Shown: piece after piece, positions 1 through 12,213 of the stretch
How the letters are laid out: every line of letters begins with the position of its first letter
Numbering within the stretch: the first letter of the stretch is position 1
NCBI GenBank assembly: GCA_045539425.1
Contig: JAZQFH010000013.1
Coordinates: forward strand, 17,094 to 81,093
From: Erysipelotrichaceae bacterium
GTDB lineage: Bacteria; Bacillota_I; Bacilli_A; Erysipelotrichales; Erysipelotrichaceae
Length of the DNA stretch: 64,000 nucleotides
Direction: 5' to 3'
Translations under genes and position numbers: made by a program
The notes under the pieces: generated by a model
Databases searched by the model: none
The model's input: only the letters and a program-made list of their open reading frames with translations
Told to the model about the DNA's origin: nothing

Positions 1-1473
1 CGGCTGATTGGCTATCTTACGGTAATAGCGCACGCTGTCTTTGGTAAAACCAAAGGTCTGAAGACGTCCTGCCGTATCATAATCGCTGCTTCCTGTCGCA
101 AAGGAATGATTGCTGAGAAGCTTTTCAAAGCGGTCGATCTCTTCTTCGGTATAGCCTTCACGGATCATCTTCGCTCTGTCTTTTAATAATGCTGAGAGCG
201 CTGCCTCATCATATTTCAGAAGGATCTGATAGAGTTCCGTATCTTCCCAGCGGACATATTTCTGCTGAAGCTTGTTAATGTCATTCTGAGACAGACCGGC
301 TTCCTTCATCTCAATCAGGCAGATATTGCGCTTTGTCTCATCCAGTGCGGAAATCTGTCCGGAGAGCTCCTCCAGATCTGCGCTTTGGTAAGCGTCAAAA
401 TGGGAGCGGACTCTCTCGTCTTCTTCTCCCTTTTCTTTCAGATAATGAAGTGCTCTTAAATATCCCAGTGAATCATCCGCTAATAAACTGTCAACGGATG
501 CCTCTTCGTTACTGATCTTATCTAAGAAGCTGTATGCCTGCTCTTCTTGCTGGGCGTTTAAATACAGCATGAAAATATTCTGGCGGAATTCTTCTACGCT
601 TTCAGTGTCATATGCCGACAGATATTCGTAGGCTTTCAGCGGCGCATTCTCCAGCGGCATATTCTCATAGAGCTGATGAAGTCCTCGCTTTGCCAAAGCG
701 GCATCCGGTTCCTGTTTCAGCCACTCAAAGAAGGAAATAAAACTGTCATCGGAATTAAAGCGGAACTCGATCTGGTTTAATTCCGTATCTTCTGCCTGCT
801 CGATTTCTTTCAGCGATTGACGCAGAAACTCATAATAATAGAAGCGGCTGAGCGAAAAATTGTTCCGGTATTCGTGATATAAATGCAGATAGGAAGCACA
901 GTCTTTGATGTTGTAGTAGTAATATTGCAACATACTGACGGATTTCGGAATGCGGGACGGTTTGTCTGTATCGTTTAATGATCGCATCAGATATTCCGCA
1001 AAATAGGAGTTCATTTCCCCTGTCATCTGATAGATGCGGGTTCCTTTGCTGTAATCGTCGTTTCCGACCGGATAGTCGCTGTTTTTCAATTTCAGCGCGA
1101 TCCGTTCATAGACGCGCGGATCATATCCCAGAGATTCTTTCAGATCATCGGACTGAAGAATATGATCCAGAACACTGCGGTTGTTATCGATGACAGCCTG
1201 GATCAGTATATCCGGCTGATCCGGATTCTGCTGTTCATTACCGACGGATACTTCTTCCTCTACCTCTTCACTGACTGTTTCCTCAGCATCCATAACCTCA
1301 TAATAGGAAATGGTTGCGGTATCAATGATCGCACGTTTTCCATCTTCCTTCTGAAGCTCCACGACATCTTCGTCAATGGACAGAACTGTTCCCGTAAACT
1401 CCCTGTTCATCACAAAAAGCGTGACTTTCGAGCCTTTTGTTACATCCTGAATCAATCTTTCTTTCAGCGCCAT
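1..1473 (-). CDS. hypothetical protein, 3' end beyond the window edge (at least 491 aa); small beta-rich N-terminal module followed by a long helical, repeat-like region
   Basis: Absent from the ORF track because no stop lies in the window. Read by hand: ATG at 1473-1471 preceded by GGGAGAAG, with no in-frame stop (plus-strand tta/cta/tca in frame 1) down to base 1. N-terminus is MALKERLIQDVTKGSKVTLFVMNREFTGTVL. No family recognised. Confidence 0.6.
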   Translation of the reverse strand, partial: MALKERLIQDVTKGSKVTLFVMNREFTGTVLSIDEDVVELQKEDGKRAIIDTATISYYEVMDAEETVSEEVEEEVSVGNEQQNPDQPDILIQAVIDNNRSVLDHILQSDDLKESLGYDPRVYERIALKLKNSDYPVGNDDYSKGTRIYQMTGEMNSYFAEYLMRSLNDTDKPSRIPKSVSMLQYYYYNIKDCASYLHLYHEYRNNFSLSRFYYYEFLRQSLKEIEQAEDTELNQIEFRFNSDDSFISFFEWLKQEPDAALAKRGLHQLYENMPLENAPLKAYEYLSAYDTESVEEFRQNIFMLYLNAQQEEQAYSFLDKISNEEASVDSLLADDSLGYLRALHYLKEKGEEDERVRSHFDAYQSADLEELSGQISALDETKRNICLIEMKEAGLSQNDINKLQQKYVRWEDTELYQILLKYDEAALSALLKDRAKMIREGYTEEEIDRFEKLLSNHSFATGSSDYDTAGRLQTFGFTKDSVRYYRKIANQP

Positions 1474-1596
1474 ACTACTTCTCCCTCTGTATTGTTATGT
1501 GCGTATTTGAATCTGTGTTATATTACTTATATTTTACATGAAAAGAGTAATCATGCGTCAAAATCAAACCAAAAAGACTAAACCATTGGTTCAATC

Positions 1597-1626
1597 GCAA
1601 AAATGCATACCTTAATGGGTATGCAC
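1597..1626 (-). terminator. intrinsic terminator downstream of the DUF1080 gene
   Basis: Stem TGCATACC (1604-1611) pairs with GGTATGCA (1618-1625). On the minus strand it is followed by TTTTTG. Confidence 0.7.
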
Positions 1627-1655
1627 GTATATTTTGATTGTTCGAAAACCGAAAT

Positions 1656-2264
1656 CTAATCTTCAAATTCAATTTCAAGATCTTTGAAGAATGCTTCTGT
1701 CCCGATTTCCGAGAAAAAGCCAACAGAACCTCTAAGATTGTTTCCGTGCTTTAAATCATTGACTTTCAGAATGAACTGATCATCAAGATAGAATTCTGCC
1801 TGATCATCATGGATGATTGCTTTTAATTCTGTCCACTGATCCAGAACGACCGGCATTTCCGCTTCATAATCCTTTATGGCAAATTCCCTGAAATAAGCAA
1901 AGGTATATCCGGGATAGGAAAAGTACTGACAACCATGAGATTTTCTGACCGGATCATCCGTCATTGCATTTGTTGGGCGAATATAGAATGACTCAAATTC
2001 ACTGTTATCTTCTTTCACACGGAATACGATACCAATAAACCCTCTGGCAAAATCCGGAGCATCCGGCAACAGACGGCTCAGCATTTTCACCTTAATTATT
2101 CCGTTATGGAAACTGCAGTATTTCAATTTAACCAGTGTGTTTTCGTCAAACTGATACATCTTCTCTGCTTTCACTACTCTGAGGACTTCATAATCCCCCA
2201 ATGTCGTATTTTCTGATTTCGTATAGGAATCCTGGAAATCTTCCTTTTTTATTGACATTTTCAT
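1656..2264 (-). CDS. DUF1080 / 3-keto-disaccharide-hydrolase-like ConA-type beta-sandwich protein, cytoplasmic
   Basis: 202 aa. AAGGAGA lies 7 nt upstream of ATG 2264. Pattern GFIGIVFRV..FYIRP..QWTELKAII..GSVGFFSEIGTEAFFKDLEI fits the DUF1080 family. No signal peptide. Confidence 0.6.
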   Translation of the reverse strand: MKMSIKKEDFQDSYTKSENTTLGDYEVLRVVKAEKMYQFDENTLVKLKYCSFHNGIIKVKMLSRLLPDAPDFARGFIGIVFRVKEDNSEFESFYIRPTNAMTDDPVRKSHGCQYFSYPGYTFAYFREFAIKDYEAEMPVVLDQWTELKAIIHDDQAEFYLDDQFILKVNDLKHGNNLRGSVGFFSEIGTEAFFKDLEIEFED

Positions 2265-2275
2265 TGTTATTCTCC

Positions 2276-4204
2276 TTACAGGTTCAATGCAATTGCATAA
2301 CCTTCATTCGTTGCTTCATTTACTTTACCGATTGCATTACAGTCACCGATCATATAAGTCCTCGGTGTAATGCCATACAATTCAAACGCTTCTTCTTTCA
2401 AGGGTCTCATTCCAATGGAAATAATGGAATGATCGGAATCTAAGTGTTCCTGTACACCACCCCTCTCGATGGTAACCCCGGTTTTATCAATTTGCAGTAC
2501 TTTTGTATTAAATAACACTTTCAGATTCTTACATGATTTTAAATGGTGCAATAGAGAGATACGGTAGAGTTGATTGCCACTGCGGGCAATCTGATCGGTG
2601 CGAGCAATCAGAGTGACTTCGCACCCTCTTTCAGAGAGTTCCATACCCAGTTCACATCCTATTGTACCGCTTCCAACTATCGTACATTTTCCGTGATATT
2701 CTTCAATATGACTAAAAACTTCCAATGCATCCGTTGTGTATTCACTTCCCTTATAAGTGGAAGAAACAGGGACAGCTCCCATTGCTATGATAAGAGCATC
2801 CGGATTCAATACCGTTACGCTCTCTTTCGTTGCGATTGTATTTAAGCGGACATCCACATGAGATTTTTGAATCTGTAATCTCAGATAATCTCTGTAACGT
2901 CTGAGATCAGTCTTATAACTGTCTGCATCCGAATAATTCAGCTGGCCTCCAAGAGAATCCCCTTTTTCCAGAAGGATCACTTCATGCCCTCTTTGATCGG
3001 CGGTCAGAGCCGCCATACATCCTGCAGGGCCTCCTCCGACAACAACGACTCTCATAGGATTTTCTGCTTTTTCGATTTTCTTAGGGAAACGGTTTTCCCT
3101 GCGGAATCTCGGGTTTACGGCACACACAGAATTCCTTCTCTCTGTTGATATGTGATAGCAGTGCATACAGCGGATACACGGAACGATATCTTCTTCCCTG
3201 TTTTCTAATGCTTTTCTTGGTAAATCCGGGTCTGCTACCAAAGCTCTTCCCATAAAGACGCAGTCAGCTTTTCCTTCTGATAGGATCATCTCTGCTTCGT
3301 CCGGTGTTGTAACAGAGCCAACAACACCAACTAATATGTTTGTTTCCTTTTTTACTCTTGCAGCAAAATCAATATTCAGCATATGAGGCTCAAAGCTCGT
3401 GGGCATGGCATACATATTTGCTTCATATTTATCGACCGAACCTCCGTATTCATCCATTCCTGCAGATATGTTGACCATATCAATGTAGTTTTCTATGTGC
3501 TTGATTAACTCCAGCATATCGTTTTCGCTAAAAGTCTCTTTTACCATCAACTGCCGGGAAAGTCTTGCAAGCAGAGGATAATCAGGTCCAACAGCCTTTC
3601 TAACTGCTTCTGCCGCCTCAATTGTGATTCTCATTCTGTTTTCTAAAGAACCTCCATATTCATCCGTTCTGTGATTCCACACAGGCGAAAGAAACAGAGA
3701 AGTCAGTGAATCATGTCCGAAATGCAGCATGACCATATCAAAACCGAATTGTTTGGCTTTTTTAGCTTGTTCTGCTGTGTAAGAAATCAAATCATCGATT
3801 TCATCTTTGCTCATGGCTCTTGCGGTTCTGTTTCTGAAATCTAAACCGTCGCACGGCATCATATATGTACCGTCTTCTCGAGGTGTCATTGAGTGAAAGA
3901 ATAGTTCCAGAATGCTCTTTGCTCCGGCTTGTCTTGTAACGGATATGATCTCTCTTGTGTTATCACGCGAGTATTTTTCAAAAGGATCTTTTGAATTGCT
4001 GACTTCCGCTACGGAGAGAGCATTGAGGCAGATTCCTGCTGCGCCTCCTGTTGACCTTTCCAAAACAGAAACACCGGCATAATTTGTTGAAGATAAAAGA
4101 TTCAGTCTGGGTGTATCCATTGGAGCGGCTATAATACGATTAGATAACATAACTCCGTTCACTCTGAGCGGTGAGAACAGATTTATGAATTTTGTATTCT
4201 TCAT
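2276..4204 (-). CDS. Fe-S flavoenzyme of the 2,4-dienoyl-CoA reductase / enoate reductase (OYE-like N-terminus plus FAD/NAD(P) domain) family
   Basis: The ORF-track start at 4222 is a TTG. ATG 4204 has GAAGGA 8 nt upstream and lies 4 nt after the regulator stop. Motifs: FSPLRVNGVMLSNRIIAAPM (OYE barrel), CIRCMHCY...C (4Fe-4S type cluster), VVVVGGGPAGCMAA (Rossmann). Confidence 0.8.
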   Translation of the reverse strand: MKNTKFINLFSPLRVNGVMLSNRIIAAPMDTPRLNLLSSTNYAGVSVLERSTGGAAGICLNALSVAEVSNSKDPFEKYSRDNTREIISVTRQAGAKSILELFFHSMTPREDGTYMMPCDGLDFRNRTARAMSKDEIDDLISYTAEQAKKAKQFGFDMVMLHFGHDSLTSLFLSPVWNHRTDEYGGSLENRMRITIEAAEAVRKAVGPDYPLLARLSRQLMVKETFSENDMLELIKHIENYIDMVNISAGMDEYGGSVDKYEANMYAMPTSFEPHMLNIDFAARVKKETNILVGVVGSVTTPDEAEMILSEGKADCVFMGRALVADPDLPRKALENREEDIVPCIRCMHCYHISTERRNSVCAVNPRFRRENRFPKKIEKAENPMRVVVVGGGPAGCMAALTADQRGHEVILLEKGDSLGGQLNYSDADSYKTDLRRYRDYLRLQIQKSHVDVRLNTIATKESVTVLNPDALIIAMGAVPVSSTYKGSEYTTDALEVFSHIEEYHGKCTIVGSGTIGCELGMELSERGCEVTLIARTDQIARSGNQLYRISLLHHLKSCKNLKVLFNTKVLQIDKTGVTIERGGVQEHLDSDHSIISIGMRPLKEEAFELYGITPRTYMIGDCNAIGKVNEATNEGYAIALNL

Positions 4205-4208
4205 GGTA

Positions 4209-6092
4209 TTATCCTTCGTCAATTATTTTCATAAAATTCTTATAAGTCGGATTGCTGATGATTCTTTCTACTTTTTTTTCATCCGCAATCGTTTTCGTCA
4301 GCATATAATAGTACGTCTGAAGATCTTTTGTCTGATCCGAGATGGAAGTCAAAAGTACGAGCTGAACATGATTGACTCCCCAGCGAATCGGATGATCAAG
4401 TATCGCGACACTGGTAAAAGGCTCTTCACTCATTTTCTTAAATGGATGAGGAATCGCAACCTGATTACCGTAATCCGTAGAGGACAGCTTTTCCCTTTCC
4501 ATTACCTGATTGAAAAAATCATCAGAGATATTCCGATATTTCTGAATCTCCTTTACCATTTCATGTATAACGGATTCCTTGTTTTCTGCTTTCAGATTCT
4601 GTATGAATAACTCTTCAGGAAAGTAAACACTGATATCCTGCTTGAAACTTCCGTAACGGACAAGATCTTCAATCTTAGATGAGCTCTTATCATTCAGGAA
4701 TGTATCAATTCGATAGATTGGTGTTTTCGTAAATGCACGGAAAGGAATTGTCGTCAGAATGAAATCATAATTGTCCAGTTCATAGTTGTTGACTTTGGCA
4801 ACTGATGAAACATTCAATTCAGAAATATAATCCTCAAAACGTGACTGAATCTGCCGTTTCAGTATTTCAGAACTGGTAGTTCCGGTATGGCACAAAAGCA
4901 GAATTTTGTACTGACGGATCTGTGACATATAAGTAGACAGTTCCAGATGCAATGCAATATAGGAAATCTCATCCTGGGATAACTGTACGTTGTACTTCTT
5001 GTTGATTACCTCAGCTGCCACACATGCCATTTCATTCGATATTTTATAATTTGACTTAATATCTTCAGCCATTGGATTTGTCTGGACAAAATGATTTTCT
5101 ATACGGATGATCAGCGGTATTAAATGCAGACTCAGGCGTACGATCAGCTGTTGGTCTTCAGAATATGTTGTCAGGAATCTTTCATCAATCTGTTTCAGTA
5201 TTTCTTCCGCAAGCATATGAATATCCTGACTGATCAGATCATCATGTGTGTTATAAAATCTCTTTCCGGCAATATGAATTCCCATATATCTGCGGTCATA
5301 TGCACTGAATTTCACATGATATAAATCTTCCAGACGGTTAAGAATTGCTGTACAAATCGGGAGTTCCTTTTCAGTATCTTCCCGATCGTCATTTTTGAAT
5401 TCGATTCCTGCTCTTTCAATCGTTACAAACAGATGAATCGTTAGATTATCCAATGCGACATCGGAAAACTCAATACCAAAGGAAGATGATTCTTCAAGAA
5501 TGATGTTTTTTATTGCTGCTATCTCTGCATCAACATTTTTCTGCAATATGCTGTACTGCCCGTTATTTCCCATGCTGATGTTTTTGAAATATATATTTGC
5601 CATGCAAAGCCGCTTGGAGAATTCTGTACCTTCTACAAACATTCCACGATATGGCAGATTCCCAATTGAAAGATTATAGTTTTCATAGAATTTACGGACC
5701 AGGCGTAAATCGGTGCTCATCTGCCGGCTGGATAAATAGAATCTGTCGGCCAGATCGTCAAGACGAATATAATCATTCTGATTCAGTAAAAACAGGGCTA
5801 TATTCTCAACCCTTGTAAGGGTATTTCGAAAGTTATACTGTTCCTTTTTGTTTTCTTCTTCAAGTTCATTCAGATACTCCTCGAATTTCGCGAAATCGTG
5901 AATGATCAGCTCGTAACCGTTACCGCTTCCCCTTTTCGAGGCAATATGAGCAACATCAGAAGAAACTGAATTATTTATCTCCGCTATTTCATTCCGTATC
6001 CTGTTTTCTGAAATACGAAAATACCCTGCCAAAAGCTTGCAGGAGCAATATTCTGCGCTTTTTAATTTCAGTATTAAGTCCAGTTTTAACAT
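4209..6092 (-). CDS. PRD-domain transcriptional regulator with EIIB-like and EIIA(Mtl/Fru)-like domains (MtlR/LicR/ManR class activator)
   Basis: 627 aa with N-terminal HTH modules and a PRD region. Also has an EIIB(Gat)-like ILLLCHTGTTSS and a C-terminal EIIA-type VAIPHP. I did not recognise a CAT RNA-binding domain. Confidence 0.8.
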   Translation of the reverse strand: MLKLDLILKLKSAEYCSCKLLAGYFRISENRIRNEIAEINNSVSSDVAHIASKRGSGNGYELIIHDFAKFEEYLNELEEENKKEQYNFRNTLTRVENIALFLLNQNDYIRLDDLADRFYLSSRQMSTDLRLVRKFYENYNLSIGNLPYRGMFVEGTEFSKRLCMANIYFKNISMGNNGQYSILQKNVDAEIAAIKNIILEESSSFGIEFSDVALDNLTIHLFVTIERAGIEFKNDDREDTEKELPICTAILNRLEDLYHVKFSAYDRRYMGIHIAGKRFYNTHDDLISQDIHMLAEEILKQIDERFLTTYSEDQQLIVRLSLHLIPLIIRIENHFVQTNPMAEDIKSNYKISNEMACVAAEVINKKYNVQLSQDEISYIALHLELSTYMSQIRQYKILLLCHTGTTSSEILKRQIQSRFEDYISELNVSSVAKVNNYELDNYDFILTTIPFRAFTKTPIYRIDTFLNDKSSSKIEDLVRYGSFKQDISVYFPEELFIQNLKAENKESVIHEMVKEIQKYRNISDDFFNQVMEREKLSSTDYGNQVAIPHPFKKMSEEPFTSVAILDHPIRWGVNHVQLVLLTSISDQTKDLQTYYYMLTKTIADEKKVERIISNPTYKNFMKIIDEG

Positions 6093-6098
6093 GTAGAT

Positions 6099-6431
6099 TT
6101 ATTCTCTTGAGAGCTTCAGTTCTTCCATCATTTTTAGATTGTTTTTCTGCATATTCAGTATCTGCAAAGTCATATCGTGAATTGTCAGTGCGTCCATAAG
6201 ATGATCCTGTGCATGTACCATCAGCAAATCTACTTCGCTCTTTTCTCCATAGAGTTCTTTATCTAAAAGGGAATGCTGCGCCTGATGTGCTTTCAGTATA
6301 TCTTGTTCTGCATCTTGAATCAATTTTTCTGCTGCCGCAAAGTTGTTGTTGCTGATTTCTTTCATCGCCATGAGAAGAGAACTTCTGGCATTTCCACCAT
6401 ATGTTATTAGTGTCATCATTTCTTGTTCCAT
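6099..6431 (-). CDS. PTS lactose/cellobiose-family EIIA component
   Basis: 110 aa. Motifs are LITYGGNARS, KAHQAQHSLL and VHAQDHLMDA, the typical three-helix EIIA(Lac/Cel) signature. Confidence 0.9.
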   Translation of the reverse strand: MEQEMMTLITYGGNARSSLLMAMKEISNNNFAAAEKLIQDAEQDILKAHQAQHSLLDKELYGEKSEVDLLMVHAQDHLMDALTIHDMTLQILNMQKNNLKMMEELKLSRE

Positions 6432-6444
6432 CTTTCTTCTCCTT

Positions 6445-6480
6445 AAAAGAGTGAATACATAAATATATATTCACTCTTTT
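6445..6480 (-). promoter_or_regulatory. intercistronic 12-bp hairpin between EIIC and EIIA
   Basis: AAAAGAGTGAAT (6445-6456) pairs with ATTCACTCTTTT (6469-6480). On the minus strand the 3' arm runs directly into the EIIA SD AAGGAG. Confidence 0.4.
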
Positions 6481-6489
6481 ACTCTTTTA

Positions 6490-7713
6490 TTATTCTGCTG
6501 CTTTTCCTTCTTTTTCCTGTTCAAGCAGTTGCTTATCATACTTTCTGACAAACGGTAACCAGATCAACCAGGATGCAGCAAATTCCAAAGCAAACACAAT
6601 GAATACTTTCCAGTCCTGAGTAGCAATAAATCCAAAGATAGGATGCGGGATCAGATTGCTCGGGAAAGAAGTTGTATAGTTTAAGAATCCAATCTGTGTA
6701 GCAAGATAGACAATTGCCGCATTCACTCCAATATACAATAACCAAGGAATGAATAATGTAATGTTACCAACGATTGGCGCTCCAAATACAATTGGTTCAC
6801 TGATATTAAAGAGTGCCGGAACTAAAGATACCTTACCAACAGCCTTTAACTGTTCACTTTTACATGTCATGAATAACAGAGGAATATGTAAATAGATATT
6901 TCCTGCCATCAAGAACGAAGAGAATGTTACGATACTTGTCGGAGCAATTCCGGAAGCTGCAGCAGTGGCATTTTCAGTCAGTCCGCCAATTAAGACAGGA
7001 ATCAAAACCGCAGAAATGATATTGAATCCATGGACTCCGAAGAACCACATCAGATTAATAAACACATTAGCACCGACCATAAATGCCAGTGTGTTGGCTC
7101 CTTTGAATAACGGTGCAAGCAATTTAACAATCAGTTCTGGGAAAATAACGCCGGTCACACCTTTACAACAAGCATTCAGCAGATAGAAGCATAATACAGC
7201 TGCTCCGCCGGAGATCATGTAGTTAAACGGACCAGCAACAGCGGATGGAACACTCTCCGGCATAGTGATCTCAATCTTTTTATCTTTAAAGAAACTAAGG
7301 ATCCATGTTACACCGAAAGCCACGATCATTCCTGTGAATAATCCTGCAGATCCAAGATAAGTGGAATCCACCACATTACCGGAACCGGTATTTGTGATCA
7401 GTAAAAATGTGGTTACGGCAATAATTACTGTAAGTAACTGATTCAGTTTCTTTGTTTTTGAATGATAATAAGTAATTCCCACAACAGCTGCTAAGCCGAT
7501 GATACCGTTTGTCAGTGTGTATGGGAAATACAGGAAGTTATAAACATCTTCACTGTATGCTGGAATAAATGGCAGTAAAGTTGGTAAAGAAGCGATGATC
7601 ATAAAGACAGAACCAATAATCAGTAATGGAAGTGTTGCTGAAAGACCATTTCTTAAACTTCTCAGTGGTACAGATTTTGCAAAAAACTCTTCGACTTTGT
7701 TCAGAAAATCCAT
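6490..7713 (-). CDS. PTS lactose/cellobiose-family EIIC permease
   Basis: 407 aa polytopic membrane protein. The N-terminus MDFLNKVEEFFAKSVPLRSLRNG..LPLLIIGSVF is typical of EIIC(Cel/Lac). Confidence 0.9.
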   Translation of the reverse strand: MDFLNKVEEFFAKSVPLRSLRNGLSATLPLLIIGSVFMIIASLPTLLPFIPAYSEDVYNFLYFPYTLTNGIIGLAAVVGITYYHSKTKKLNQLLTVIIAVTTFLLITNTGSGNVVDSTYLGSAGLFTGMIVAFGVTWILSFFKDKKIEITMPESVPSAVAGPFNYMISGGAAVLCFYLLNACCKGVTGVIFPELIVKLLAPLFKGANTLAFMVGANVFINLMWFFGVHGFNIISAVLIPVLIGGLTENATAAASGIAPTSIVTFSSFLMAGNIYLHIPLLFMTCKSEQLKAVGKVSLVPALFNISEPIVFGAPIVGNITLFIPWLLYIGVNAAIVYLATQIGFLNYTTSFPSNLIPHPIFGFIATQDWKVFIVFALEFAASWLIWLPFVRKYDKQLLEQEKEGKAAE

Positions 7714-7727
7714 ATTTTATCCCCCTT

Positions 7728-8045
7728 CTAGATTTTCACTTTCCGGTACTGATTTACTGCATCCAGCAGTACTTTTTCTCCGTTCATCATTCCGTAGTCT
7801 TCTTTGGATATATTGGAAATGACAGGAATTCTGTCTTTGAATTCATCCATCAATTCGCTGTATCTCCATATTAACTGAGGTGCAATCAGCAGAATATCTG
7901 TTTCATATTCTTCATAGAACAATTCATCAGCACCCATAGGAATGATATTGGCATCAATTTTGTTTTGTTTTGCAGCATTCTGCATTTTTGTAACCATGAA
8001 GGATGTGGACATGCCACCCGCACATACTAGAACAATGCTTATCAT
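7728..8045 (-). CDS. PTS lactose/cellobiose-family EIIB component
   Basis: 105 aa. The active-site region is MISIVLVCAGGMSTSFMV. Confidence 0.9.
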   Translation of the reverse strand: MISIVLVCAGGMSTSFMVTKMQNAAKQNKIDANIIPMGADELFYEEYETDILLIAPQLIWRYSELMDEFKDRIPVISNISKEDYGMMNGEKVLLDAVNQYRKVKI

Positions 8046-8136
8046 CAGTACCTCTTTCTATCTGAATTTTAATAGATATAATTCAGAACCTCCACGCAGT
8101 TAAATTAAGAATAAATATGTTTCATTTGCGAAGATA

Positions 8137-10596
8137 TTAATACCGGCTGTCTTTTTTTAATCCATAGACATTTAGCTCATGTGCTAATGGCTGAACTGCA
8201 GAAATCATCAGATTTTTTGGAAGATATCCTTTTTTTACTACCAGATATTCTTTGTTTTCTTCGGTATCAAACACTACTTTGTCACCTTCAATTGTATATT
8301 CTATTTGTACATCATCGCAATAAACATCCACCTCTAATCCAAAACAACTCTTCAATCTTACCGTCTGGCCTTTTTCTGAATATATATCAATGAATTCCGT
8401 AAAACCGTTTGTTCTTTTTCCGCTAAGAAGGAAAGCACCTTCTGTTCGTAAATTATAAAACTCAATATCCCGGAAACTCTTTGGAAGAACATCCATACAG
8501 TAGATATTGCCGTTATAACTGCGCAGCGTGAAGTTTTGCAATGCCTCGTTAAACATTCCGTCTGAGTCAACTGTCAGACCCATGTTGTCATGAATGACAA
8601 ATGCTTCCTGGTTATTCGATCCGTCAGTGTCGAATGTGCTTTCTGATACAAATTTATCTGCATATTCATGAATCAGCTGATATGCCATTGCAGGTTTGTT
8701 TGCAAGCAGAGCAATCTTAGCTGCTTCAGAGAAAGTCCATCCCATCCATTCACCGGTTCCGTAAACGATTAGTGCATGTAAGGACCTCTCGATAATTCTT
8801 CTTCCTTCTTCAGTTTCATTTGTTATTTGATAAAGCTGTGTAATCGGGAACAGATGCGTCAGATGACGATGTGAACTCGTATAATCAAGGTCTCCTCTTA
8901 CACTCAGACCGCCAAAACTGTCATATTTGAACGGAACAAGGTATTTAAGAGTATCTTTCCATTTTTCTTCATCCTCATCTTCAATCTTGAGAATTCTTTC
9001 AATTTCCAGCAACGTTTCACACATGAATTTTAACTGAGCGATGTCACAGGTCGCATCTTTTCCCCAGAAGTGATCATATTTTTTACCTGATGCCTTTCCG
9101 TTGATAAGTGGTGGATACTCTGCAGACATCGTTGTAGGCAGGTGATAGTATCCATCTTCTTCTTTAACTAAAAGAGACATCGGAATGCGGCATTGTGCCT
9201 TCATCATTGGATAAACATATTCTTTCAGGAATGCTTCATCCAGTGTATACAGATATCTCTGCCACATCATCTGGCACATCCAGGGACCGCATAAGAGTTC
9301 AAAGTTGTTCGCGGAGTAATATTGGCATCCTAACTGGTAATCAGTAATATGGGCCAGGAATTCTCCCCCTTCTACTCCAAAAAATCTTTCTGCATAATCA
9401 CGCATTTTGTCCCTGTTATTCTTCAGTAAATCAAAAGTTGTATCCGTAGCCTCCAGTCGATTTCCGCCATAAGCGCCGAAGAATACGGTTTCCTGTTGTG
9501 TGTTCCAGATATAGGTAGCCCCTAAAGTTGCCAGTGTCCCGTCATCCGGTACCCATATGCCATTCATATTCGGAGCAATTCCGTTTTTCTTTGTCATGGC
9601 AGCAAGCTTATACCAGTTGATCCAGTACAGTGCTTCCAGTTTTGTATCATTAATGGAATAAAAAGATTTCGGATAGACAGAGTGCCACCATTTTTTATGT
9701 TCTTCCATTTCTTCTGTCAGCCAGCTGTTGGAAGTGTATTGTTTGATGTTATTCAATGCCTCAGATACTGCCTGATTATCCTGGCTCATCGTTACTGTAA
9801 CAATGAGTGTATTTGTTCCGTTATTGCGCGAAATATTGATCCATGCGACACAGTAATTTCCGTTTTCAGGTATTTCCTGTTGCCAGTAAGAGATGCCGTC
9901 AGTTATTCCTCTTATTGAATCCTTATAACCCCAGTCTTTTAAAACACGAGCCATTTCCGGTGCAGGTCCATCATATCCACGGCAGAGTTTTCTCATAAAT
10001 CTGGCCGGTGAAAATTCAAATACCTCGTGATACTCTTTTGTATATTCTCCTACATCAGAGCAGAATCTGAAGCGGAATGACAGTTCTTCTTCCTCGAATG
10101 TTTCGTAATTGAATACTATGCACGGATGCTCTGCACTGACATGGCAGTCCCATTTTACGGAACCTAAATCTGTTAAAAAGCGTCCAGTTGTGATTCCGTC
10201 ATACAGATGAAGGCACATGTTATAGTCTGTTTCCTGTTTGATCTTCCCCTTCGGATGCACTTCAAAACGACCTAAGGGTAAAAGCTGTGCAGTAGGTCCT
10301 TTATCTGACTTTGTCTGTACAATTCCCACTGGATTGGAATAAGTTCCTTCTTTTACCAGTTTTTCAAAGTTGCTCCATTTGAATTTTTCTGGATCAGGCG
10401 AATATCTCCTCATTTCCCATATATCATTTCTTGTCATGGATACATTCAGATGATCTTCACCCCAAATGACAACAGAAACGACTGAGTTGGCCATTGGAAT
10501 ACCCTTATCCCAGATAGGTGCTGGAACATCATAAATGAGATCATGTCTTTTCAGATAATCTCCCATACATGATTCGTTGAATCTAACTTTTCTCAT
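8137..10596 (-). CDS. cytoplasmic (alpha/alpha)6 glycoside hydrolase, GH95-like (alpha-L-fucosidase/galactosidase family relative)
   Basis: Start trimmed to ATG 10596 (MRKVRF), which has GGAGGTG 9 nt upstream. The N-terminus LIYDVPAPIWDKGIPMANSVVSVVIWGEDHLNVSMTRNDIWE resembles the GH95 N-domain. IWNTQQETVFFGAYGGNRLE resembles the GH95 N-x-N..NYW..N-L-x-E region. No signal peptide. Confidence 0.5.
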   Translation of the reverse strand: MRKVRFNESCMGDYLKRHDLIYDVPAPIWDKGIPMANSVVSVVIWGEDHLNVSMTRNDIWEMRRYSPDPEKFKWSNFEKLVKEGTYSNPVGIVQTKSDKGPTAQLLPLGRFEVHPKGKIKQETDYNMCLHLYDGITTGRFLTDLGSVKWDCHVSAEHPCIVFNYETFEEEELSFRFRFCSDVGEYTKEYHEVFEFSPARFMRKLCRGYDGPAPEMARVLKDWGYKDSIRGITDGISYWQQEIPENGNYCVAWINISRNNGTNTLIVTVTMSQDNQAVSEALNNIKQYTSNSWLTEEMEEHKKWWHSVYPKSFYSINDTKLEALYWINWYKLAAMTKKNGIAPNMNGIWVPDDGTLATLGATYIWNTQQETVFFGAYGGNRLEATDTTFDLLKNNRDKMRDYAERFFGVEGGEFLAHITDYQLGCQYYSANNFELLCGPWMCQMMWQRYLYTLDEAFLKEYVYPMMKAQCRIPMSLLVKEEDGYYHLPTTMSAEYPPLINGKASGKKYDHFWGKDATCDIAQLKFMCETLLEIERILKIEDEDEEKWKDTLKYLVPFKYDSFGGLSVRGDLDYTSSHRHLTHLFPITQLYQITNETEEGRRIIERSLHALIVYGTGEWMGWTFSEAAKIALLANKPAMAYQLIHEYADKFVSESTFDTDGSNNQEAFVIHDNMGLTVDSDGMFNEALQNFTLRSYNGNIYCMDVLPKSFRDIEFYNLRTEGAFLLSGKRTNGFTEFIDIYSEKGQTVRLKSCFGLEVDVYCDDVQIEYTIEGDKVVFDTEENKEYLVVKKGYLPKNLMISAVQPLAHELNVYGLKKDSRY

Positions 10597-10740
10597 ATTA
10601 CGGTACACCTCCACTTTTACAGATTTACTATAAAGGGAAATTACAAATGACTCCACGAAGCATTTATGTAATAAAAAACTGTTTTATTTCATGGAGTTCA
10701 AATAAACATAGAACGACACTCCTATTCTCCAAATATGAAA

Positions 10741-10772
10741 GCACCTCCTGTATGGACAATTAGAGGAGGTGC
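10741..10772 (-). promoter_or_regulatory. strong leader hairpin (possible attenuator) upstream of the GH-PTS operon
   Basis: GCACCTCCT (10741-10749) pairs with AGGAGGTGC (10764-10772): 9 bp with a 14-nt loop. On the minus strand it is followed by TTTCATATTT. Confidence 0.45.
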
Positions 10773-10807
10773 CGTTGCTACATATAACGTCTGATATCTG
10801 TGTATTC

Positions 10808-10835
10808 ATCATACAGAATGTGTTTTATCATTCAA
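10808..10835 (-). promoter_or_regulatory. candidate sigma-A promoter of the GH-PTS operon
   Basis: On the minus strand: TTGAAT (10835-10830), 16-nt spacer, TATGAT (10813-10808). It lies about 205 nt upstream of ATG 10596. Confidence 0.4.
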
Positions 10836-10868
10836 ATAAAGAAAAGGCATACCGTAACGGGTATGCCT
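10833..10868 (-). terminator. intrinsic terminator after the SPFH gene
   Basis: GGCATACC (10846-10853) pairs with GGTATGCC (10860-10867). On the minus strand it is followed by TTTTCTTTATTT. Confidence 0.7.
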
Positions 10869-10888
10869 GTAGGAATCATGTGATTTCT

Positions 10889-11776
10889 TTATTTCTCGGC
10901 CAGTTCCTTAATGGAAGTAACTGTTTTCGCCAGATCCTGCATGTCGCTAGGAACGATAATCTTCGTTGCCTGTCCGTCTGCCATCTTTTCCGTGGCTTCC
11001 ATGGAACGGATTGCCAGGTATTCCTGGGACGGTTTGGCTTCATTGATCACTTTGATTGCTTCCGCTTTTGCCAGAGCGATCTGACGTACGCTTTCCGCTT
11101 CACCCTGAGCTTCACGGATCAGTCTTTCCTTGTAAGCTTCCGCTTTCAGGATTGCACTTTCCTTTTCACCTTCTGCTTCGGTGATAGCGGCCTGTTTCTG
11201 ACCTTCTGCCTTTAAGATTGCTTCACGTTTCTCACGTTCCGCTTTCATTTCCTTTTCCATCGCTTCCTGAATGGAGCGCGGCGGCATGATGTTCTGAACT
11301 TCCACACGTTTGACATCGATTCCCCAGTTATCCGCTGCCGTGTCCAGTAAGCGGGTGATCTGGGAGTTGATGATGTCTCTGCCTGTGAGCGTTTCATCCA
11401 GCGTCATGGAGCCGAGGATGTTACGCAGTGTTGTGGCACATAAGTTTTCCAGAGCTGCAATCGGGCGTTCGACTTTATATGTCAGAGCTTTCGGGTCAAT
11501 GACCTGGAAGTATACGACAGAGTCAACCTGCATTGTGACGTTATCCTTTGTGATAACACTCTGCGGTTCAAAGTCGGCGACCTGTTCCTTTAAGGAAATC
11601 TTACGGACGATTTTGGAAATAAAGGGTTTCTTTAAATGTAAGCCTGCTTCCCATGTACCGGCATATTTACCGAGATCTTCGACGATCCAGACATAGCTTT
11701 CCGGTACGATATTGATACAGGTAACCAGTAAAACAATAATGAGTAAAACGATTACTCCGATAATGACATATTGCAT
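10889..11776 (-). CDS. SPFH/band-7 (stomatin/prohibitin-like) membrane protein
   Basis: 295 aa with an N-terminal TM helix (VIIGVIVLLIIVLLV). Has an SPFH core and a C-terminal charged coiled region, PRSIQEAMEKEMKAEREKRE. Confidence 0.85.
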   Translation of the reverse strand: MQYVIIGVIVLLIIVLLVTCINIVPESYVWIVEDLGKYAGTWEAGLHLKKPFISKIVRKISLKEQVADFEPQSVITKDNVTMQVDSVVYFQVIDPKALTYKVERPIAALENLCATTLRNILGSMTLDETLTGRDIINSQITRLLDTAADNWGIDVKRVEVQNIMPPRSIQEAMEKEMKAEREKREAILKAEGQKQAAITEAEGEKESAILKAEAYKERLIREAQGEAESVRQIALAKAEAIKVINEAKPSQEYLAIRSMEATEKMADGQATKIIVPSDMQDLAKTVTSIKELAEK

Positions 11777-11787
11777 ATATGTTCCTC

Positions 11788-12213
11788 CTATCTGCGTTTA
11801 ATGCTGTTGAAGATGATCGAAAGGATCATAGCGATGAAGATGAGCGGTAAAAATGTAAATGCGACAGGCATGAAGCCGCTTGAGAAATCCGACAGGATCA
11901 TCACAAATACCATAACGATGAAGAACACCGTAAAGCCTGTGATTGCCGCTACCATGCTTTTTGCGGCATTCGTGGGATTCACAGATCTTTGCGGATTGTT
12001 TACCGGACGTTCAACCGGACCGGTCTTCATTCTTTCGTAAGACGGGCGTAAACGCGATCTGTGTTCTGCTTCATGTTCCAGTCTGACTTCATCTCTTTCA
12101 CAGTTATCTTCATGTTTTTTTCTTAATGTACTGGCATTGTCATCAAGATCCCAGTGGCTGATGCGGCTTTCAAATTTCAGTTCCTGCTCCAGCCAGTCAT
12201 CCTGTTTGATCAT
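11788..12213 (-). CDS. hypothetical membrane protein (charged N-terminal half, two C-terminal TM helices)
   Basis: ORF 11788-12219. The second ATG (12213) has better spacing to AAAGGAGG. The C-terminus is AAITGFTVFFIVMVFVMIL..FTFLPLIFIAMILSIIF. No OB-fold NfeD-like region recognised. Confidence 0.55.
   Translation of the reverse strand: MIKQDDWLEQELKFESRISHWDLDDNASTLRKKHEDNCERDEVRLEHEAEHRSRLRPSYERMKTGPVERPVNNPQRSVNPTNAAKSMVAAITGFTVFFIVMVFVMILSDFSSGFMPVAFTFLPLIFIAMILSIIFNSIKRR

Follow-up and report, generated by a model that had tools for sequence, protein, structure and literature searches.

A Lac/cellobiose-family phosphotransferase operon with a GH95-like glycosidase and an Fe-S flavoenzyme in an Erysipelotrichaceae bacterium: evidence for a conserved importer-regulator-reductase module

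Introduction

Operons in which a Lac/cellobiose-family phosphotransferase system (PTS) is accompanied by a PRD-containing activator, such as licR-licBCAH of Bacillus subtilis and the streptococcal cel loci with CelR, end in a phospho-beta-glycosidase of glycoside hydrolase (GH) family 1 or 4. The subject of this report is a seven-gene operon related to these systems, which lies in a stretch of 64,000 nucleotides (the window) from an Erysipelotrichaceae bacterium (contig JAZQFH010000013.1, positions 17,094 to 81,093). Like the lic and cel operons, it encodes separate EIIB, EIIC and EIIA proteins, with a helix-turn-helix (HTH)-PRD-EIIB-like-EIIA-like regulator in or beside the operon. Unlike them, it has a GH95-like glycosidase, an Fe-S flavoenzyme (the reductase) and a concanavalin A (ConA)-like protein instead of a GH1 or GH4 phospho-glycosidase, neither of which was found anywhere in the 64-kb window, the operon included.

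Other parts of the operon also resemble described systems. In Lactobacillus acidophilus, plant glucosides are reported to be taken up by PTS and cleaved in the cytoplasm, and the aglycone to be released and exported unchanged (PMC5698550). The window operon would likewise combine PTS import with cytoplasmic cleavage that frees an aglycone, but a reductase is built into it, and exporters of the MatE and MFS families are found only in some of its relatives. The GH95 enzymes AfcA, an alpha-L-fucosidase, and BACOVA_03438, an alpha-L-galactosidase (PMC4491172; PDB 2EAB, 4UFC), share with the window glycosidase a three-domain fold and several active-site residues, but the window protein has Gln in place of the second catalytic Asn and is predicted to be cytoplasmic and PTS-linked. 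The reductase has the domain order of FadH, BaiCD and BilR, with an old yellow enzyme (OYE) barrel, a 4Fe-4S motif, and FAD and NAD(P)H domains; as in BilR, its clade is distinguished by a substitution at the position of FadH Tyr166 (PMC10769871), but the motif is H-x-G-H-D-S rather than HGDR or H-x-x-H-x-Y. The product of the last gene is a ConA-like beta-sandwich, as are the DUF1080 hydratases (PDB 8V31, 8TDA) and CBM66 (PDB 4B1M), but it differs from the hydratases in its sub-threshold Pfam match and in being a stand-alone protein that is predicted to be cytoplasmic.

Glycoside PTS operons under PRD activators are well known. The pairing of a PTS with an Fe-S flavoenzyme is uncharacterized. 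A 2020 survey catalogues Fe-S flavoenzyme clusters predicted for "saccharide catabolism" without detail, and makes no mention of a PTS or glycosidase context for these enzymes (PMC7371122). A literature search revealed no characterized system that joins a PTS, an Fe-S flavoenzyme and a glycosidase, in agreement with an earlier reading of the window from its letters alone (the sequence-only reading), which knew of no such pathway, and no PTS-linked GH95 enzyme was found to have been described. The comparison of related loci presented below shows that the genes for importer, regulator and reductase are conserved and inherited together as a module, whose glycosidase partner has been swapped among GH1, GH78-like and GH95-like enzymes.

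Conservation of the importer-regulator-reductase module

The identification of a Lac/cellobiose-class PTS with a PRD/EIIA regulator in the sequence-only reading was upheld by Pfam matches above the curated cut-offs for EIIB (PF02302, 2e-15), EIIC (PF02378, 9e-37) and EIIA (PF02255, 5e-29), and for the PRD (two stretches) and PTS_EIIA_2 domains of the regulator, in which HTH_11, Mga and PTS_IIB matches were weak. EIIC scored 220 bits with TIGR00410, slightly below the cut-off of 236 bits.

The three closest homologues of the reductase, which come from different samples, are 61, 58 and 55% identical to it. They lie on three independent contigs (L014, L016 and L017), on which EIIB, EIIC, EIIA, regulator and reductase genes are arranged in the same order as in the window, and regulator and reductase are adjacent, with gaps of 8-28 nt. 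Identity to the corresponding window gene is 53-66% for all five genes (55-62% for EIIB, 63-66% for EIIC and 53-57% for the regulator), and the block of PTS, regulator and reductase has therefore been inherited together. The reductase gene of L016 is followed by a GH1 gene, while L017 has GH1 genes upstream and a GH1 remnant downstream. The five-gene module is also present in cultured strains, namely Holdemania filiformis DSM 12042, Traorella massiliensis and Erysipelotrichaceae bacterium NK3D112.

Homologous loci, mainly from metagenome-assembled genomes (MAGs) and short contigs, were retrieved with two peptide patterns taken from an alignment of the reductase clade, using one genome per GTDB species, and neighbors were detected by tblastn with the window's own proteins, supplemented by some Pfam checks. 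Among the 78 loci obtained, 26 encode a reductase at least 40% identical to that of the window, and a Lac-type EIIC was found within 10 kb of it in 19/26, EIIB and a PRD regulator in 18/26 each, GH1 in 15/26 and a GH78-like enzyme in 3/26. In a reductase subfamily of approximately 30% identity, none of the 52 loci had EIIC, EIIB, a PRD regulator, GH1 or a GH78-like gene. Judged from these gene neighborhoods, PTS linkage is specific to the clade of the window reductase (19/26 vs. 0/52). The PTS-positive loci belong to Holdemania, Traorella, rumen and gut Erysipelotrichaceae, Oscillospiraceae, Anaerolineaceae/Pelolinea and Defluviitaleaceae, and the pairing is conserved across several phyla; a Treponema contig carries the reductase with GH1. 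The sequence-only reading had proposed glycoside uptake with intracellular processing, and had allowed that the reductase might prove merely adjacent, its linkage unconserved in relatives. The co-inheritance of PTS and reductase, in the three sister operons as in the wider sample, supports the proposal and shows the adjacency to be more than incidental.

The glycosidase is the variable component. In the most common layout, a divergent regulator gene is followed by EIIA-EIIB-EIIC-reductase(-reductase)-GH1(-reductase). The GH1 partners fall in the NCBIfam 6-phospho-beta-glucosidase subfamily and by implication act on a phosphorylated glucoside that carries a separate leaving group. GH1 is absent from three loci (L024, L028 and L035, including Erysipelotrichaceae bacterium NK3D112), in which a gene for a 774-aa GH78-like alpha-L-rhamnosidase lies immediately 5' of EIIB, the position of the GH95-like gene in the window, and an aldo/keto reductase gene follows that of the Fe-S flavoenzyme. 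In some sister clusters, genes for a MatE or MFS exporter, for a HAD phosphatase, or for ferredoxin- or nitroreductase-like proteins are present in addition. These accessory genes (exporters, aldo/keto reductase, ferredoxin-like proteins) are consistent with aglycone handling. Because the reductase remains constant while the glycosidase changes, the feature common to the substrates is most likely a class of aglycone, and the most likely target of the reductase is the non-sugar portion. Plant secondary-metabolite glycosides would fit as substrates.

The Fe-S flavoenzyme

The assignment of the reductase to the FadH/enoate-reductase-like Fe-S flavoenzymes in the sequence-only reading agrees with its domains and its cysteine motif. 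Oxidored_FMN as well as Pyr_redox_2 matches exceed the Pfam cut-offs, the protein has an OYE barrel and two dinucleotide-binding motifs, and the Fe-S motif CxxCxxCx11C (C343/346/349/361), located between the two domains, is invariant in the reductase-clade alignment. When aligned to E. coli FadH, the reductase retains the His161/His164 pair and has Ser166 at the site of the Tyr166 proton donor, giving the motif H161-x-G-H164-D165-S166. A motif of this type, H-x-[G/A]-H-D-S, characterizes the PTS-linked clade, and paralogous reductases in the PTS-linked clusters have H-F-[A/G]-H-G-W at the same site. The classical H-x-A-H-[A/T]-Y is retained in the subfamily without PTS linkage. Many of the clusters in loci L020-L045 (e.g., L023 10001-17326 and L027 7997-16033) contain 2-4 paralogous Fe-S flavoenzymes, of the H-D-S and H-G-W motif classes, together with one GH1 and one PTS.

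The best-scoring named NCBIfam models for the reductase are BaiCD, followed by long-form BilR, and both were rejected, since the scores are well below cut-off (378 vs. 825 bits for BaiCD; 312 vs. 750 bits for BilR) and, in the case of BilR, the motif is GHDS and not HGDR. The BilR clade was delineated by its replacement HGDR at the site equivalent to FadH Tyr166 (PMC10769871); the residue register between BilR and the window reductase was inferred via FadH. Mycofactocin-OYE was likewise ruled out on NCBIfam cut-offs.

The GH95-like glycosidase

The sequence-only reading had called the first gene product GH95-like, and this stands: the Pfam GH95 catalytic domain matches with 118.9 bits (3.4e-34; cut-off 27), and the top 15 Foldseek matches in the PDB for the predicted structure are all GH95 enzymes (TM-scores 0.62-0.71), at 13-15% identity in the structural alignments. 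In this model, which was used for fold class only because of its pLDDT of 71.8 and low-confidence active-site loops, the fold is N-beta/(alpha/alpha)6/C-beta, as in GH95. Close relatives are few, with only 13 (39-63% identity) in an index of 5.8 billion proteins, while a full HMMER search revealed a much larger, divergent family of 995 representative clusters at E<=1e-30.

The active site was mapped by sequence alignment onto BACOVA_03438, with catalytic residues as given for that enzyme (PMC4491172). The general acid E493 corresponds to Glu501 (Glu566 of AfcA) and is invariant in the clade; N365 corresponds to the first catalytic Asn, Asn372; an acidic residue is present at the position of AfcA Asp766; and the HRHxSHL motif is retained. 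The second catalytic Asn (Asn374; the AfcA pair is Asn421/Asn423) is replaced by Q367, and in the alignment by Gln in all members of the tight clade, which has N-[T/M]-Q-Q (WNTQQ in the window) vs. [N/D]-x-N in the wider family (N-x-N in GH95). At the Thr370/His419 site, which distinguishes L-Gal from L-Fuc in GH95, PTS-linked members have Ile or Val and the ABC-linked member P0133 has His. This residue, along with FucU- and FucI-like neighbors of the relatives, gives hints of the sugar specificity. A phospho-sugar at the -1 site was considered and is unlikely, given the hydrophobic Ile/Val at the C6-specificity position.

By gene context, the GH95-like clade is repeatedly PTS-linked. The order EIIB-EIIC-EIIA-regulator-GH95-like is found in L100/L101, where the five genes are 39-50% identical to those of the window and the GH95-like gene occupies the position of the window's reductase gene; further PTS contexts are EIIC-EIIA-GH94-like-regulator-GH95-like (L104), GH95-like-EIIC-regulator (L009) and BglG-EIIBC(Glc)-GH94-GH95-like-EIIA(Glc) (L011). 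Two other loci are of the ABC type, FucI-like-GH95-like-GH3-ABC transporter (L098) and ABC transporter-GH95-like-sulfatase-FucU (L010). The GH94-superfamily protein that stands beside the GH95-like protein in a Glc-type and a Lac-type PTS operon (L011 4452-7265; L104 1467-4268) has approximately 935 aa, and this pairing hints at a common oligosaccharide substrate.

Proposed pathway

Together, these observations lead to a proposal that is held with about even confidence, namely that the operon is PRD-controlled and serves to import, by PTS, a glycoside with an alpha-L-sugar cap and to process it in the cytoplasm, where a C=C bond of the aglycone is reduced. As predicted from the protein families, the LicR/CelR-type PRD regulator would turn the operon on while EIIB-EIIC-EIIA imports the substrate, with import coupled to phosphorylation. 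The GH95-like enzyme would then remove the terminal alpha-L-sugar in the cytoplasm by inverting exo-action; in view of the active-site map and the contexts of relatives, this sugar is probably a 6-deoxy sugar. The Fe-S flavoenzyme would reduce an activated C=C bond in the freed non-sugar part with NAD(P)H, via FAD, 4Fe-4S and FMN, and this reduction might serve as detoxification or as an electron sink for sugar fermentation.

Several points weigh against this proposal. The GH95-like gene and a reductase of the window clade occur together only in the window (0/26 reductase loci and none of roughly ten GH95-like contexts), and the specific combination taken in the sequence-only reading as a unit is not supported; L100 has a 28%-identical reductase 7 kb distant on the opposite strand. 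Elsewhere, GH95-like genes with PTS linkage have GH94-like or GH3 partners, which points to an oligosaccharide rather than an aglycone glycoside as substrate. If the terminal sugar is 6-deoxy, PTS phosphorylation requires a second sugar with a free 6-OH, and the 64-kb window contains no GH1 or GH4 enzyme that could remove it. With Ser166 instead of the canonical Tyr donor, classical ene-reductase chemistry is not guaranteed. Finally, the pattern-retrieved loci on which the counts are based do not amount to an unbiased census.

Since sister loci of the GH95 type are without the window-clade reductase, the window operon fuses two sister operon types that share a PTS-regulator backbone. This fusion might be a mosaic without a joint pathway, in which the GH95-like enzyme and PTS serve an alpha-L-fucosylated (or similar) oligosaccharide, and the reductase, carried over from an ancestral PTS-regulator-reductase-GH1 operon, acts on another substrate that enters by this route or a different one. 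Such a history is considered unlikely, although it would accommodate the PTS-regulator operons with a GH95-like gene and no window-clade reductase (L100/L101, L104, L009), the GH94-like and GH3 partners in GH95-like contexts, and the FucU/FucI-like neighbors that suggest a sugar-only substrate. The window PTS genes are also 55-66% identical to those of reductase-type operons vs. 41-52% to those of the GH95 type, a pattern that fits loss of GH1 from a reductase-type operon, into which the GH95-like gene was then inserted. However, the seven genes have one composition and lie in one promoter-to-terminator frame, the reductase gene is intact and in close translational coupling with the regulator gene 4 nt before it, and the GH78-like alpha-L-glycosidase at the equivalent position of another reductase-type operon suggests a recurring design and not an accident. 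Import and cleavage of the glycoside with reduction of its aglycone is retained as the preferred reading.

Operon organization and boundaries

The seven co-directional genes and the elements around them are listed in Table 1. Their order is that given in the sequence-only reading and was borne out by the coordinates of the minus-strand open reading frames (ORFs). The gaps between consecutive genes, first to last, are 91, 14, 58, 6, 4 and 11 nt, as had been claimed for the maximum and for the regulator-reductase junction, where the reductase gene starts 4 nt past the stop codon of the regulator gene. At each of the final two junctions, the ribosome-binding site of the downstream gene (reductase and last gene, respectively) lies within or just past the preceding gene. 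The unit had been placed at 1656-10835, and although its gene order holds, position 10835 falls in the promoter/leader and not in coding sequence. The most likely start codon of the GH95-like gene is the ATG at 10596; it is preceded by GGAGGTG and gives a product of 819 aa, as long as P0121, an identical protein in the database. In a Pfam search, which the sequence-only reading had recommended, six of the seven operon proteins passed the curated cut-offs, and only the last-gene protein, with a sub-threshold PF06439 match, did not. Signal peptides, which that reading had found in none of the proteins, were judged solely from reading the N-termini of the operon proteins.

Table 1. Genes and sequence elements of the operon region, in window coordinates
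Feature	Position	Strand	Description
Terminator of upstream SPFH gene	10868-10845	minus	hairpin
Operon promoter/leader	10597..10888	minus	sigma-70-like site 10835-10808, repeat pair, GC-rich hairpin
GH95-like glycosidase gene	10596..8137	minus	819 aa
AT-rich inverted repeat	8061..8087	minus	TCTGAATT-N11-AATTCAGA; within the 91 nt that separate the GH95-like gene from EIIB
EIIB gene	8045..7728	minus	Lac/cellobiose family PTS
EIIC gene	7713..6490	minus	Lac/cellobiose family PTS
EIIA gene	6431..6099	minus	Lac/cellobiose family PTS
PRD regulator gene	6092..4209	minus	HTH/Mga, two PRD stretches, EIIB-like and EIIA-2 domains
Fe-S flavoenzyme (reductase) gene	4204..2276	minus	FadH/OYE type, 642 aa
Last gene	2264..1656	minus	202-aa ConA-like beta-sandwich protein
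Two terminator-like hairpins closing the operon	1576..1625	minus	palindrome 1604-1625, then TTTTT; second hairpin 1596-1576

Hairpins (10868-10845 and 1625-1576) bracket the unit on both sides, as the sequence-only reading had stated, and no convincing internal terminator was found in the seven-gene unit. The GC content at third codon positions (GC3) is 0.35-0.41 in all seven operon genes vs. 0.51-0.52 in genes on either flank, and the GC content of the operon is 39.3% vs. 47.1% in the remainder of the window. With this common composition, the operon, first and last genes included, looks like one acquired block, and this suggests that it was gained horizontally as a single unit.

The same data bear on a very improbable alternative, in which the reductase and last genes are separate transcription units that happen to lie downstream. 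Weak promoter-like matches do exist within the unit, yet they are fewer than in shuffled sequence, and chance adjacency does not sit well with gaps of 4 and 11 nt that lack an intervening terminator, with regulator-reductase neighbors conserved in three other contigs, or with the GC3 common to all of the genes.

Downstream of the operon, positions 1-1497 of the minus strand contain a reading frame that stays open for at least 498 aa, runs off the window edge and has the higher GC content of the flanks. The annotated plus-strand ORFs at 978-1581 look spurious.

Leader and intergenic elements

The leader contains two copies of the 11-mer TTTATTTGAAY on the minus strand (10840-10830 and 10706-10696), spaced by 134 nt, the first of which overlaps the predicted -35 hexamer. 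These are the only two copies in the window, where 0.17 would be expected. A relaxed motif, TTTAT[AT]TGAA[CT], was found upstream of EIIB in L016 (twice), L017, L100 and L101. The repeat may be the operator of the PRD regulator, for which its recurrence in relatives is only a hint. A search for 12-mers common to the leaders of the window and sister operons yielded AT-rich matches only, and matches to catabolite-responsive elements were at chance level, with none in the leader.

Approximately 145 nt upstream of the GH95-like start codon, a 9-bp GC-rich hairpin (10772-10741, minus strand) is formed by GCACCTCCT and AGGAGGTGC and is followed by TTTCATATTT; possible roles are those of an attenuator or of a terminator remnant. 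An Rfam scan of positions 1-12000 yielded nothing relevant, and no match for this hairpin. The inverted repeat between the GH95-like and EIIB genes was not regarded as a terminator, because no T-run follows it.

The last gene

The DUF1080 identity proposed for the last gene in the sequence-only reading is not supported. The PF06439 match of 18 bits (E = 0.003) is below the cut-off of 26.8 bits, an NCBIfam search of the protein gave no match, and among 120 listed homologues only two have a precomputed PF06439 match. The AlphaFold model (pLDDT 82) is a ConA-like sandwich whose best structural matches are CBM66 (PDB 4B1M) and B. subtilis 1OQ1 (TM-scores 0.60-0.66); the DUF1080 3-keto-2-hydroxy-glucal hydratases, which belong to the same fold class, match at TM-scores of 0.45-0.49 with a root-mean-square deviation of ~12 A. 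None of the 26 reductase loci contains the gene, and in this respect its linkage, unlike that of the reductase, is not conserved in relatives. The 1175 homologues found are mostly from Solobacterium and Erysipelotrichaceae MAGs (65-71% identity). Orthologues adjoin HxlR and PGI genes, or GH20, a flavin-reductase-domain gene and CstA, and never genes of this operon; these contexts were taken from homologues, as an exact look-up of the gene matched no contig. The last gene is probably co-transcribed with the operon here and probably not a core member of the pathway.

These findings also bear on a sugar-side route, in which the reductase would reduce an enone or keto intermediate derived from a sugar, and the product of the last gene would be a DUF1080-type hydratase or hydrolase of a 3-keto or glycal sugar. 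This route would draw on the activity of the solved DUF1080 proteins, which are 3-keto-2-hydroxy-glucal hydratases (PDB 8V31, 8TDA, 9FBE), and on the weak PF06439 match of a gene that belongs to the same low-GC island. It is nonetheless quite improbable, given the sub-threshold match, a fold that resembles CBM66 and 1OQ1 more than the hydratases, and the distribution of the last gene described above. Oxidative 3-keto routes have as their other parts a Gfo/Idh/MocA oxidoreductase and an eliminase of the sugar-phosphate-isomerase type. The operon contains neither, and variation of the glycosidase while the reductase stays argues against a reaction bound to one sugar. Because last-gene orthologues never adjoin these genes, the 3-keto-sugar idea lacks comparative backing, and the DUF1080 lead should be dropped.

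Conclusions

A broader conjecture, doubtful in its full extent, is that widespread and uncharacterized PTS operons of anaerobic Bacillota, Chloroflexota and possibly other bacteria hard-wire glycoside import to an Fe-S flavoenzyme, so that the aglycone would serve as electron acceptor for the fermentation of its own sugar. Under this conjecture, the H-D-S and H-G-W proteins would constitute new reductase subfamilies without the Tyr donor, and the window would hold the first GH95 enzyme, of the Asn-to-Gln subclade, that acts on PTS-delivered and possibly phosphorylated substrates. The comparison provides targets for such questions in the form of a five-gene module in cultured strains, a sequence signature for the reductase subfamily, and a rare subclade of GH95 in which the catalytic motif is changed. 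Provided that the reductase acts on aglycones released inside the cell, these operons would represent a general, previously overlooked way for anaerobes of the gut and rumen to import and chemically modify plant or dietary glycosides, which would bear on what becomes of bioactive compounds and on the redox balance of fermentation.

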